Assembly: GCA_038897215.1 (NCBI GenBank)
Contig: JAWAWX010000001.1
Span: 1,056,001-1,120,000, forward strand
DNA: 64,000 nt
Direction: 5' to 3'
DNA from: Acidilobaceae archaeon
Lineage (GTDB): Archaea; Thermoproteota; Thermoprotei_A; Sulfolobales; Acidilobaceae
The notes beneath the pieces are model-generated. The model saw only the letters and a program-made list of their open reading frames with translations, made no database searches and was not told the DNA's origin. Position 1 is the stretch's first letter, and each line of letters begins with the position of its first letter. A program made the translations under genes and the position numbers. Of the stretch, positions 50,659-54,435 are shown one piece after another.

Positions 50659-51711
50659 TTGAAGACAATAGGTCTCCGTAAGCTGACATCGTTTTTCAAT
50701 AAGCCAGTCTTCGCTGTCGAAGCTCCACTCCCCCTAGTAGGACACATAGCCTTCGGTCTGATAGATAGAGGAACAAACGTAGTCCAGTTGAGACCGACCA
50801 CGTTGTGCCCGCACTCCTGCATATTCTGTAGTGTCGATGCCGGTCCTCGAAGCGTGTGGAGACAGGCAGAATACATCGTGGACATAGAGTGGCTGTATCA
50901 GCACGCGTTAAGCGTAGCTAGATACAAGGGGGGGAGGTCTCTAGAAGCTCTCTTAGACGGGGTAGGTGAGCCGCTTAGCCACCCTCGTGTAGTTGAGCTA
51001 GTCAAGATGCTGAAAGAGTCGGGGCTCTACGAGAGAGTAGCTATCGAAACCCACGGAGGCTTCTTAACCAAAAGCTTGATAATGAAGCTGGCTGACGCGG
51101 GCCTAGATAGGATAAACTTGAGCATAGACTCTCTAGACCCTGCTCAGGCTAGGAGACTCGTTGGGCTAGAGTCCTACGATGTCTCCAGGATTCTAGAGCT
51201 AGCAGCGTGGACTCTCGAGAATACCCGAATCGATATAGTCTTGACTCCAGTAGTCATCCCCGGGCTAAACGAGAGAGAGATGGCTAAGATGATAGAGTGG
51301 GCTAAGAAGCACAAAGCGGGAGAGAAGAGCTCTTGGCCTACAGGAGTCTTGATTCAGAAGTACGAGGTTCACAAGTACGGTAGAAAAGTCAGGGGAGTAA
51401 AGCCATGGTCTTGGCGTAGATTCTACGAGTGGCTTAGAAGACTTGAGCGCGAGACAGGCTACAGGCTGATAGTCTCATCGAGAGAGATAGGAATAGAGCC
51501 TCGACCCTCTCTACCCAAGCCATTCGAGAAGGGAGACGTAGTCACAGGGATAGTCGTAGGCCCAGGCTGGCATAGAGGAGAATATCTGCTAGTTGATAGG
51601 GATTTTAGAAGAATCATATCACTGTTTCCTAGGAGAGAGCTCAAGATAGGCGAGGTACTCACCGTCAAGATTGTCAGAGACACTGATAACATCTACGTGG
51701 CTACAGATTAG
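50659..51711 (+). CDS. radical SAM protein with C-terminal TRAM domain (COG2100-like)
   Basis: PLVGHIAFGLIDRGTN, CPHSCIFC. Confidence 0.88.
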   Translation: MKTIGLRKLTSFFNKPVFAVEAPLPLVGHIAFGLIDRGTNVVQLRPTTLCPHSCIFCSVDAGPRSVWRQAEYIVDIEWLYQHALSVARYKGGRSLEALLDGVGEPLSHPRVVELVKMLKESGLYERVAIETHGGFLTKSLIMKLADAGLDRINLSIDSLDPAQARRLVGLESYDVSRILELAAWTLENTRIDIVLTPVVIPGLNEREMAKMIEWAKKHKAGEKSSWPTGVLIQKYEVHKYGRKVRGVKPWSWRRFYEWLRRLERETGYRLIVSSREIGIEPRPSLPKPFEKGDVVTGIVVGPGWHRGEYLLVDRDFRRIISLFPRRELKIGEVLTVKIVRDTDNIYVATD

Positions 51712-51775: not shown

Positions 51776-52858
51776 GTGAGTGAGCGGAAGAGGGGGTGTG
51801 TGGAGATTCTTAGAGCTGGAATCGAGGGATGGGGTGTCTACATACCCAGATATTGGCTACCGGCTTACGAGGTAGCTAAAGTGTGGGGATGGCCCGACCA
51901 TACTTGGAAAAGTCTGGGAGTCGAGGGCAAAGCAGTAGCGAACGTTGACGAAGACTCTACCACTATGGGAGTCGAGGCTTCTCTAAACGCTATCGCTAGA
52001 GCGGGCATAAGTCCTCGGAGAATTGGGGCTGTTCTCTTCGGCTCAGAGTCTAAGCCCTATGCGGTAAAGCCTAGTGCAACAGTGATAGCTGAGGTTATTG
52101 GAGCAACTCCTGACGTGATGGCTAGCGATCTAGAGTTCGCTTGTAGAGCTGTCGGAGAAGCCCTTAGGATTGCTACAGCTCTAGTGTCATCTAATAATGT
52201 CGAGTATGCTCTCGTAGTGGGTAGCGATACAGCTCAGTCGAACCCAGGAGATGTCCTCGAGTTTACGGCTGCTAGCGGAGCAGCAGCGTTCGTTGTTGGA
52301 GCTAACGATCCAGTAGCGGTACTCGAGGGTAGCTTTACCTACGTCACGGACACACCCGACTTCTGGAGGAGAGACGGCGCTCCCTACCCAAGACATGGAG
52401 AGGGCTTCACGGGCGAGCCCGCATACTTCGCTCACGTAGTCTCAGCAGCTAGACACCTCATGGAGAGCCTTGGCCTCAGACCTTCTGACTTCAAGTACGC
52501 GGTCTTCCACCAACCTAACGGGAAGTTTCCAGTTAAAGTCGCTCAAATACTAGGCTTCACGACCGACCAGATAAAGACTGGTCTAGTGGCTCCACAAATA
52601 GGCAATACGTACAATGGGAGTGCTAGCATAGGGCTAGCAAGAGTACTCGATAAAGCAGCACCGGGAGACAGGGTTCTAGTCGTAACCTATGGTAGCGGCG
52701 CTGGTAGCGACGCTTTCAGCTTCATTATCACAGACTCGATTGTAGAGAAGAGAGATAGGGCTCCTACTGTCGACGATTATCTAGCAGCTAGAGTAAAGAT
52801 CTCGTACTCAGACTACGTCAAGCTCAGAGGTAAGATAAAGAGTCTCCCCAGAGACTAA
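51776..52858 (+). CDS. archaeal HMG-CoA synthase
   Basis: GSESKPYAVKP, EFACRA (catalytic Cys), HQPN, GNTY, YGSGAGSD. Confidence 0.93.
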   Translation: MSERKRGCVEILRAGIEGWGVYIPRYWLPAYEVAKVWGWPDHTWKSLGVEGKAVANVDEDSTTMGVEASLNAIARAGISPRRIGAVLFGSESKPYAVKPSATVIAEVIGATPDVMASDLEFACRAVGEALRIATALVSSNNVEYALVVGSDTAQSNPGDVLEFTAASGAAAFVVGANDPVAVLEGSFTYVTDTPDFWRRDGAPYPRHGEGFTGEPAYFAHVVSAARHLMESLGLRPSDFKYAVFHQPNGKFPVKVAQILGFTTDQIKTGLVAPQIGNTYNGSASIGLARVLDKAAPGDRVLVVTYGSGAGSDAFSFIITDSIVEKRDRAPTVDDYLAARVKISYSDYVKLRGKIKSLPRD

Positions 52859-52859
52859 G

Positions 52860-53999
52860 GTGAACTTCATGGTTTTCATAATAGGAGCTGGGATGACTCA
52901 GGTAGATAGACATTACGATAGGAGCCTCAAAGACCTAGCTTTCGAGGCGACAGCGAAAGCGCTAGAGTTGGCTGAGATGAGCGAAGACGATATAGACACC
53001 GTGGTGGTAGCTTCTAGCGTCTCGTACCTACAGTCAAGACAGCTAGATCTAGCCTCTTACATAACGTCATCGATAGGCATGAGGAGAGCTAGAGCTCTAG
53101 CTGTAGAAGCAGGCGAAGCCTCGGGACTAGCGGCAGCTCAAGTAGCTCTATCTCTAATCAGGAGCGGTGTTGCTGAAAACGTGCTCCTACTGGGTGTCGA
53201 TAAGCTGAGCGATACGACGTCTTCCAGTGCATACGAGCATCTATCCCATTTAAACGATGTAGAGTACGAGGGCTTTCACGAGTTCGGCTTCGGAGCTATT
53301 CAGGGGATCCTGGCTAGGCTATACATGTCGAGGTATAAGGTAGACCGCCTCACTCTAGCTCAGTGGCCTGTCTTAATGCACGCTAACGCTAGAAGCAATC
53401 CGCTAGCTATGCTCAGATTCAGCGTGAAGCCAGAAGCAGTTCTGGAGGCGCCTCCCGTAGCCGAGCCTTTAACTCTCCTCGATATGCCCCCAATATCTGA
53501 TGGAGCGGCAGCGATAGTGTTATCGGCTAGAAGTAGAGGGTCTCTCTCTAAGCTGGTTGCTGTAGAGTCGGCTACAGGCTATCCTAGCATAGCTCTTCAA
53601 GAAGACCCTCTCATAATAGAGTCTCTAGAGGTCGCTTATGCTAAACTGAGAGCCAAGGAGGATATCGAGGACCCTGATATACTCGAAGTCCACGACTCTT
53701 CTAGCATAACCGGGATACTGATACTAGAGACGCTCGGATTAGCGGAGAGAGGGAGAGCAGCTAAGATGATAGCAGAAGGCTACTTCTCTAACGAGAAGCC
53801 ACTAGTCAACCTAAGTGGTGGTCTTAAAGCTCGAGGACACCCAATAGGAGCGACGGGAGTCTACCAGCTAGCCGAGATAGCCTTGCAGATTGCTGGCATC
53901 TTCCCGGGGCGTAGAGCTCAAGAAGCTAAAAGAGGTCTAGCTGTATCGATCAACGCTCACGGGTCCTCATCCTATGTAGCTTACCTAGAGGAGGCCTAG
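52860..53999 (+). CDS. thiolase-fold protein lacking all cysteines
   Basis: VEAGEASG, SDGAAA, EVHD, GHPIGATG. Confidence 0.9.
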   Translation: MNFMVFIIGAGMTQVDRHYDRSLKDLAFEATAKALELAEMSEDDIDTVVVASSVSYLQSRQLDLASYITSSIGMRRARALAVEAGEASGLAAAQVALSLIRSGVAENVLLLGVDKLSDTTSSSAYEHLSHLNDVEYEGFHEFGFGAIQGILARLYMSRYKVDRLTLAQWPVLMHANARSNPLAMLRFSVKPEAVLEAPPVAEPLTLLDMPPISDGAAAIVLSARSRGSLSKLVAVESATGYPSIALQEDPLIIESLEVAYAKLRAKEDIEDPDILEVHDSSSITGILILETLGLAERGRAAKMIAEGYFSNEKPLVNLSGGLKARGHPIGATGVYQLAEIALQIAGIFPGRRAQEAKRGLAVSINAHGSSSYVAYLEEA

Positions 54000-54015
54000 A
54001 GGAGGGCGGCTAGCT

Positions 54016-54435
54016 GTGAGCACACCACCAGCGGTCTGGAGGCTTCGGGAAAGCCTGTACAGGTTGCTAGGGAGACAGTGTAGAGACTGCGGGCGAGTAC
54101 ACTACCCGCCCCTCAAGGCATGCCCCTACTGCAGCTCTCGCAATCTGAGCGATGTCGAGCTCCCTAGAAGAGGCAGGCTCGTAAGCTACTCTATAGTCTA
54201 CTCTACTCCATCTCATAGACGTGAGAAAACCCCCCTGATAGTAGGTCTCATCGACCTCGGAGTGGCTAGAGTAGTAGCGGAGATCACTGATGCAGACGCT
54301 TCAGAGATCAGAGAAGACATGGAAGTCGAGGCTGTGCTAAGAAAGCTGAGAGAAGACGGGGCCTCGGGGCTGATAGTGTACGCGCTCAAATTCAGACCCT
54401 CGCTAGTGAATAGAAGAAGCTCTACTACGAGTTAA
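54016..54435 (+). CDS. DUF35 Zn-ribbon/OB-fold scaffold
   Basis: CRDC...CPYC, GLIVYALKFRP. Confidence 0.92.
   Translation: MSTPPAVWRLRESLYRLLGRQCRDCGRVHYPPLKACPYCSSRNLSDVELPRRGRLVSYSIVYSTPSHRREKTPLIVGLIDLGVARVVAEITDADASEIREDMEVEAVLRKLREDGASGLIVYALKFRPSLVNRRSSTTS

Follow-up and report, generated by a model that had tools for sequence, protein, structure and literature searches.

A cysteine-free thiolase-fold protein encoded with HMG-CoA synthase in Acidilobaceae, a probable non-catalytic subunit, with a classic thiolase as the likely source of acetoacetyl-CoA

The 64,000-nucleotide window analyzed here (assembly GCA_038897215.1, contig JAWAWX010000001.1, positions 1,056,001 to 1,120,000) comes from an Acidilobaceae archaeon and carries an operon for 3-hydroxy-3-methylglutaryl-CoA (HMG-CoA) synthase (HMGS), a thiolase-fold protein, a DUF35 protein, and a relic of HMG-CoA reductase (HMGR). 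The thiolase-fold protein has no cysteine in its 379 residues and, judged by its sequence, cannot act as a thiolase. The explanation that we regard as probable is that HMGS depends on the complex and on the CoA site shared within it, so that the protein persists as a non-catalytic subunit, while a classic thiolase encoded elsewhere in the genome provides the acetoacetyl-CoA.

The nucleophile loop of the thiolase-fold protein reads VEAGEASG, and an ungapped phmmer alignment (query residues 5–107 against chain residues 4–106) places its Glu86 on residue 85 of 6ESQ_A, the thiolase chain of the complex from Methanothermococcus thermolithotrophicus. The active cysteine of that subunit is Cys85 (PMC6392133). 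The match to 6ESQ_A extends over residues 5–371 with an E value of 9e-50, and the histidines of both catalytic motifs are present, namely His278 in HDSS and His327 in GHPIGATG. A first-pass annotation of this DNA had described a cysteine-free thiolase of 379 residues with VEAGEASG, HDSS, and an intact GHPIGATG, and every one of these features was confirmed by translation and motif alignment. It had also described an HMGS with intact catalytic residues, and indeed Glu91, Cys123, and His245, together with Asn277, are kept: they line up with the motifs GSES, FAC, HQPNG, and GNTY in the HMGS chain 6ESQ_I, which the protein matches with 397 bits. The thiolase-fold protein itself scores below both curated NCBIfam cut-offs, that of NF053570 (224 bits against 600) as well as that of NF004720 (Table 1), and databases name it acetyl-CoA acetyltransferase or thiolase. 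In the AlphaFold2 model (mean predicted local distance difference test score, pLDDT, of 96), the predicted fold is intact, superimposing on 6ET9_C with a template modeling (TM) score of 0.94 and a root mean square deviation of 1.9 Å. An alternative start for the open reading frame (ORF) lies at an ATG at position 52869. That a whole protein lacks cysteine is weak evidence taken alone; it goes beyond chance here because the replaced site is the nucleophile and the replacement is conserved family-wide.

The extent of this conservation became clear from the relatives. The search covered 24 relatives in the Acidilobaceae; an ortholog could be read in 23 of them, and all 23 carry Gly-Glu or Gly-Asp in place of Ala-Cys. 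A protein homology search returned Acidilobus, Caldisphaera, Aeropyrum, and Stetteria as named relatives. The Ser-Ser ending of HDSS is specific to the source genus, and HDS[FY] is found in most members of the family. To cover the phylum, the DNA around HMGS was read in 40 further genomes, in which Cys-less HMGS-linked thiolases with Gly-Asp were present in three families outside Acidilobaceae (f13, f21, and f30 in our numbering) and several other families had Gly, Leu, Gln, or Thr at the nucleophile site, with Gln in one relative from family f11. Family f13 presumably includes relatives of Sulfolobus (S. acidocaldarius), and we take f21 and f30 to fit Pyrobaculum/Thermoproteus, Caldivirga, and Vulcanisaeta. 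The survey of the nucleophile residue across Thermoproteota that the first-pass annotation had proposed thus gives Cys-less proteins in at least ten families. We left the motif columns out of the alignment for a tree of 63 HMGS-linked thiolases; in it, 31 Cys-less rows from ten families form one clade with a Shimodaira–Hasegawa-like approximate likelihood ratio (SH-aLRT) support of 97, and the whole tree requires at least three state changes at the nucleophile site. In a wider set comprising the 147 most similar representatives at 50% identity, cysteine is missing at the site in 80, and the acidic types number 15 for Gly-Asp, 10 for Gly-Glu, seven for Ala-Asp, and two for Ala-Glu. The loss of the cysteine appears to be ancient and common rather than a recent decay, because the ten-family Cys-less clade is well supported and all readable Acidilobaceae orthologs are acidic at the site; by the same comparisons, the substitution is a trait of the lineage and not peculiar to the source genome. 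The first-pass annotation had allowed that the substitution might be universal and already explained in this lineage. It is universal in the lineage, but our literature searches, the study of Vogeli 2018 itself aside, found no description of Cys-less HMGS-linked thiolases and no paper that explains them.

We next consider how the gene has been maintained. Sequences were compared with a congener (G001), and since synonymous divergence (dS) was saturated (at least 2 or undefined), only nonsynonymous divergence (dN) is comparable. The dN values were 0.153 for the thiolase-fold gene, 0.131 for HMGS, 0.20 for DUF35, and 0.20 for a neighboring radical SAM gene, and the thiolase-fold ORF was unbroken in every genome examined, spanning at least 10 families. 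The gene is thus under strong purifying selection. Over longer distances, the picture differs between the two types of protein. When compared at matched HMGS divergence, in pairs that are not independent, the identity of Cys-less thiolases was 16–21 points lower than that of their HMGS partners, whereas the Cys-bearing ones ranged from −7 to +2 points, suggesting that the Cys-less protein is less constrained than a working thiolase. Both catalytic histidines are kept in 66 of the 67 Cys-bearing representatives in the set of 147 but in only 31 of the 80 without cysteine at the site. Inside the supported clade, GHP has become GY or GN, and the histidine of HDxF has become Thr, Gly, Arg, Ser, or Tyr, depending on the family. 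This pattern of erosion fits lost catalysis with a retained structural role and not one new conserved mechanism.

If the operon protein is not a thiolase, acetoacetyl-CoA would have to come from elsewhere. The source genome is a single contig of 1.16 Mb, 89.7% complete by marker count. A genome search with PF22691 (Thiolase_C_1), a profile that does not cover classic thiolases, found the window gene only; BLAST with the paralogs of relatives, followed by PF00108, found exactly one further thiolase, outside the window at G000:C1:706160-707344. This protein scores 406 bits against TIGR01930 (cut-off 241), has the motifs VCASG and GHPLGASG and a C-terminal cysteine, and aligns end to end with the thiolase THL of Clostridium acetobutylicum (PDB 4N44), including Cys88, His348, and Cys378. 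The Cys-containing second thiolase that the first-pass annotation had suggested looking for therefore exists, and it is of the classic PhaA type. Unlike the operon gene, it stands alone among unrelated genes for a helicase, a nucleotidyltransferase, TrmY, and a photolyase. The ECH_1 domain was not found in the genome search, and 3HCDH_N gave only a 33-bit partial match; the classic thiolase is therefore unlikely to belong to a beta-oxidation set. Overall, HMGS, the DUF35 protein, the Cys-less thiolase, and the classic thiolase each occur once in the genome, which also encodes mevalonate kinase. Of 42 genomes whose HMGS-linked thiolase lacks Cys, 29 yielded an ortholog of the classic thiolase, compared with none of 20 in which it bears Cys, raw counts that make the association with Cys loss suggestive. 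Some of the Cys-less genomes without the classic enzyme have a second, Cys-bearing thiolase of the sterol carrier protein 2 (SCP2) type with its own DUF35. The single classic thiolase elsewhere in the genome agrees with one option of the first-pass annotation, in which HMGS is fed from another source of acetoacetyl-CoA.

What is known of the archaeal complex suggests why a silent subunit would be kept. In the 6ESQ structure, CoA is bound at the interface of all three proteins (PMC6392133), and archaeal HMGS is 50–100 residues shorter than bacterial or eukaryotic HMGS (PMC11522927). A passage of PMC12960953 that cites Vogeli 2018 states that HMGS on its own is inactive and that the thiolase on its own is insoluble. 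A dead but required subunit also has precedents in PhlABC of Pseudomonas protegens and MucABC of Streptococcus macacae, which combine HMGS-like, thiolase-like, and DUF35 proteins (PMC6392133, PMC12960953). They are a mirror image of the present case: the HMGS-like PhlA and MucA are dead and the thiolase-like protein keeps its cysteine, whereas here HMGS is intact and the thiolase cysteine is lost. Moreover, their function is Friedel–Crafts acylation, not mevalonate synthesis. The shared CoA site, the short HMGS, its inactivity alone, and the PhlABC/MucABC precedent are together the grounds for reading the Cys-less protein as a dead thiolase subunit.

In the mechanism we propose, the Cys-less protein would be a pseudoenzyme subunit of an HMGS/thiolase-like/DUF35 complex and would not condense acetyl-CoA. 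It would be retained because the truncated archaeal HMGS, inactive alone, shares a CoA site built by all three subunits. Free acetoacetyl-CoA made by the classic thiolase would enter the shared site, where HMGS would convert it to HMG-CoA, to be reduced by a class II HMGR whose gene lies outside the operon. The carboxylate at position 86 probably replaces the thiolate or acetylated cysteine at the N terminus of the active-site helix and keeps the pocket folded, and the preference for Glu or Asp may be a mimic of the charge or shape of a thiolate or acetyl-cysteine. We infer each of these steps, namely the assembly of the complex, the contribution to CoA binding, the catalytic silence, and the role of the classic thiolase as supplier. 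Carbon-fixation cycles of the 4-hydroxybutyrate type pass through acetoacetyl-CoA and employ a classic thiolase. The Cys-less clade may roughly match the lineages known for such cycles, in which the complex's own thiolase could thereby have become redundant.

Several observations weigh against a purely structural role or against the classic thiolase as supplier. Within the genus, the thiolase-fold protein shares 76% identity with its congener ortholog and HMGS 79%, so that its constraint is near the level of HMGS and tighter than a mere spacer might need. Glu and Asp are near-exclusive in the clade and both histidines are kept in most Acidilobaceae, which could point to chemistry in the pocket. 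Only three phylogenetically independent contrasts lie behind the counts of 29 of 42 and 0 of 20, which gives the comparison no statistical power, and 13 Cys-less genomes showed no classic thiolase with the query used. At 89.7% completeness, absences in the source genome mean "not found." In family f10, the operon reads HMGS–DUF35–HMGR with no thiolase gene between (L077, G080:C1:1072600-1080100; L078, G033:C6:172100-179600), and HMGS therefore may not always need a co-encoded thiolase-fold partner. We take f10 to fit Staphylothermus hellenicus. In the second of these genomes, G033, the HMGS frame is 508 amino acids long, possibly an HMGS–DUF35 fusion, and a Cys-bearing SCP2-type thiolase is encoded elsewhere (L064).

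Compared with the M. thermolithotrophicus complex (6ESQ/6ET9), the same three proteins are encoded together here, the thiolase fold is closely similar, and the HMGS residues and the DUF35 zinc ribbon are kept. The differences lie in the thiolase active site, with Cys85 and HDCF there and Glu86 and HDSS here, in the gene order HMGS–thiolase–DUF35–HMGR (relic), and in the separate classic thiolase of the source genome. The steroid side-chain aldolases Ltp2–ChsH2(DUF35) and Sal–Shy(DUF35) resemble the source protein in having a thiolase fold without the nucleophilic cysteine and in pairing with a DUF35 domain. However, they require a catalytic tyrosine in a YD[HC][FY] motif (PMC12329534), and the tyrosine of YDHF or YDCY corresponds to His278 in the source protein. 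In both systems, DUF35 forms the C-terminal part of a hydratase of the MaoC type (ChsH2 or Shy), whereas the source DUF35 protein is free-standing, with 139 amino acids, and the source locus has no steroid or hydratase context. The structure 6OK1 ranked 47th in the fold search (TM 0.82) and was not among the phmmer matches at E ≤ 1e-5. The option of an Ltp2-type aldolase or a different acyl-CoA chemistry, raised by the first-pass annotation, is thus not supported, given the histidine at the tyrosine position and the free-standing DUF35 protein.

A broader possibility is that the protein is still an enzyme of another kind, with the Glu86 carboxylate and His278 and His327 serving acid/base catalysis on an acyl-CoA (retro-aldol cleavage, hydrolysis, or enolization) or a new HMG-CoA-linked step. 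In its favor, the 147 representatives repeatedly show an acidic residue at the site, both histidines persist in most Acidilobaceae, dN within the genus is as low as for HMGS, and Ltp2 and Sal are real enzymes with a Cys-less thiolase fold and a DUF35 partner. A conserved mechanism, however, would not tolerate the replacement of histidine in several families of the clade, with both kept in 31 of 80; the Ltp2/Sal tyrosine position is a histidine; the Cys-less copies evolve markedly faster than the Cys-bearing ones; and no extra pathway gene besides HMGS, DUF35, and HMGR is consistently linked. We therefore hold this reading to be unlikely, though worth keeping in view. That the carboxylate is itself involved in catalysis, for instance by forming an acyl-anhydride or acting as general base, with the mevalonate pathway of this widespread crenarchaeal clade starting from a thiolase-fold reaction independent of cysteine and the classic thiolase serving another purpose, seems decidedly unlikely. 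Very unlikely, in our judgment, is the more specific proposal that the protein remains an acetoacetyl-CoA thiolase with Glu86 as acyl acceptor via a mixed anhydride, channeling acetyl-CoA to HMG-CoA. The operon, the fold, and both histidines are preserved, as this would require, and glutamyl anhydride intermediates are established in class I CoA-transferases; yet we know of no thiolase-superfamily enzyme with a carboxylate nucleophile, other members of the clade carry Gly, Leu, or Gln at the site, and a classic thiolase is retained as a separate gene in a genome reduced to 1.16 Mb, where the search found no enoyl-CoA hydratase to go with it.

By analogy with KSQ domains and chain-length factors, the protein could instead decarboxylate malonyl-CoA or prime a decarboxylative condensation. 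Ketosynthases with a Cys-to-Gln replacement are decarboxylases, and the f11 relative has Gln at the site. Against this, the only match of the β-ketoacyl-acyl carrier protein synthase III (KAS III) type in the genome is HMGS itself, and acyl-CoA carboxyltransferase (PF01039) was not found in the genome, so that there is no apparent malonyl-CoA source; we reject such a role as scarcely credible. Finally, the loss of the nucleophile and the scores under the NCBIfam cut-offs might suggest a decaying pseudogene without function, a reading to which we give hardly any credence and which was rejected on conservation. The ORF is intact across at least 10 families, with a dN of 0.153 and a pLDDT of 96, and the adjoining HMGR relic, with a dN of 0.65, shows what relaxed constraint looks like at this locus.

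Other Cys-less thiolase-fold proteins were compared as well. ST0096 of Sulfolobus tokodaii (PDB 4YZO), TbSLP, and TLP1 of M. smegmatis share the SCP2-thiolase fold with a replaced nucleophile, but none of them is known as a partner of HMGS. The source protein aligned over 370 residues with 4YZO, which has Ser at the site (Thr-Ser for Ala-Cys). We considered 4YZO as a structure of the source protein type and rejected it as a different paralog, the HMGS-linked ortholog of a Sulfolobaceae-type genome giving no match to it at E ≤ 1e-40; it belongs to a separate Cys-less thiolase-fold family without HMGS linkage. 4YZO also resembles a paralog in a family f11 genome (L068, G034:C1:567800-574000).

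The downstream HMGR gene tells a parallel story. The match of this ORF to TIGR00533 is confined to the N-terminal ~127 amino acids. Compared with the operon-linked HMGRs of relatives, the ORF has another residue for the glutamate of PLATTEG, has lost DAMGMN and DKK by deletion or beyond recognition, and stops short of the C-terminal histidine. Its identity between congeners is 38%, against 68–79% for the adjoining genes, and its dN is 0.65, against 0.13–0.24 for those genes; the frame is nonetheless still open. Most Acidilobaceae carry a full-scoring class I HMGR (415–460 bits) directly behind DUF35; in the source genus this gene has decayed, and other genera of the family have intermediates of decay scoring 255, 137, and <20 bits, with a class II HMGR present each time. 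The source genome has a class II HMGR at C1:265982-267262 (L043:3982-5262), which scores 481 bits against TIGR00532 (cut-off 260). The operon ORF, which the first-pass annotation had called apparently dead, is thus a catalytically dead relic of the operon-linked class I HMGR, and the class II HMGR has taken over from the decayed copy. Since the class II HMGR and mevalonate kinase are encoded elsewhere, the pathway is complete and only the operon has been hollowed out. The earlier statement that two of three enzymes are non-canonical accordingly holds for the operon and not for the pathway.

The locus consists of four plus-strand genes with intergenic gaps of 1, 16, and 11 nt (Table 1), and the gene order HMGS–thiolase–DUF35–HMGR is kept in relatives. 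The DUF35 protein, the sole PF01796 match in the genome, keeps all four zinc cysteines (residues 22, 25, 36, and 39).

Table 1 Features of the HMGS operon and its upstream neighbor (positions within the window)
Feature	Position	Strand	Basis or remark
Radical SAM protein, 350 aa, operon neighbor	50659-51711	+	PF04055 match
HMG-CoA synthase (HMGS)	51776-52858	+	NF003274 532 bits vs cut-off 244; TIGR00748 478 vs 353
Thiolase-fold protein without Cys	52860-53999	+	379 aa; NF004720 291 bits, below cut-off 420
Glu86 codon GAA	53115-53117	+	position of nucleophile Cys85 in M. thermolithotrophicus thiolase
HDSS, residues 278-281, replacing HDCF or HDAF	53691-53702	+	motif read from translation
GHPIGATG, residues 326-333, His327 kept	53835-53858	+	motif read from translation
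DUF35 protein (zinc ribbon + OB fold), 139 aa	54016-54435	+	PF12172 + PF01796 matches
HMGR-like relic, 357 aa	54447-55520	+	TIGR00533 67 bits vs cut-off 442

The radical SAM gene upstream adjoins the HMGS operon in six other Acidilobaceae loci, in four of them on the opposite strand. Its product gave weak matches only, to MoaA and the tetraether synthase Tes, and its protein-atlas clusters are all Thermoproteota radical SAM proteins. We regard it as a neighbor whose membership in the HMGS system is only putative.

Several loci in the wider sample depart from the common arrangement. One f4 genome holds two clusters (L061, G027:C2:130400-136600, and L028, G027:C1): in one, a normal HMGS is accompanied by DUF35 and a thiolase with Gly-Glu; in the other, a divergent HMGS-like gene (33% identity) is accompanied by DUF35 and a thiolase with Ala-Cys. 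The pair looks like two complementary half-dead copies. In two genomes of genus g55 (family f18), the HMGS matches (G074:C1:491205-492254 and G089:C22:50617-51663) each contain one in-frame stop, one of them TAG, the other TGA. At loci L086, L090, L091, L095, L097, L098, L101, L103, and L106–L108, which come from several further families of the phylum, the HMGS frame is ~500–530 amino acids long with the thiolase gene upstream, and a separate DUF35 ORF was not detected. One six-member sub-clade of these long-HMGS families has an alignment gap at the nucleophile motif.

The finding in the window is a trait of the lineage, for which an ordinary explanation is likely, and the source genome is a minimal setting in which to see it, with an unambiguous inventory of one dead thiolase and one live one. 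At the source locus, the Glu variant belongs to an acidic substitution seen across the whole named family, in parallel with the decay of HMGR within the operon after displacement by class II. If the thiolase-fold protein is indeed a scaffold, a large clade would have a half-dead version of the textbook archaeal channeling complex; Aeropyrum, Acidilobus, and Caldisphaera belong to this clade and, as we presume, so probably do relatives of Sulfolobus and Pyrobaculum. Synthesis of membrane lipids in these organisms would then have to start with a free-standing classic thiolase, its unfavorable equilibrium not offset by channeling, which would bear on metabolic reconstructions and on the persistence of pseudoenzymes in complexes. 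Should the Sulfolobus assignment be true, direct testing would be possible in a host that is amenable to genetics.

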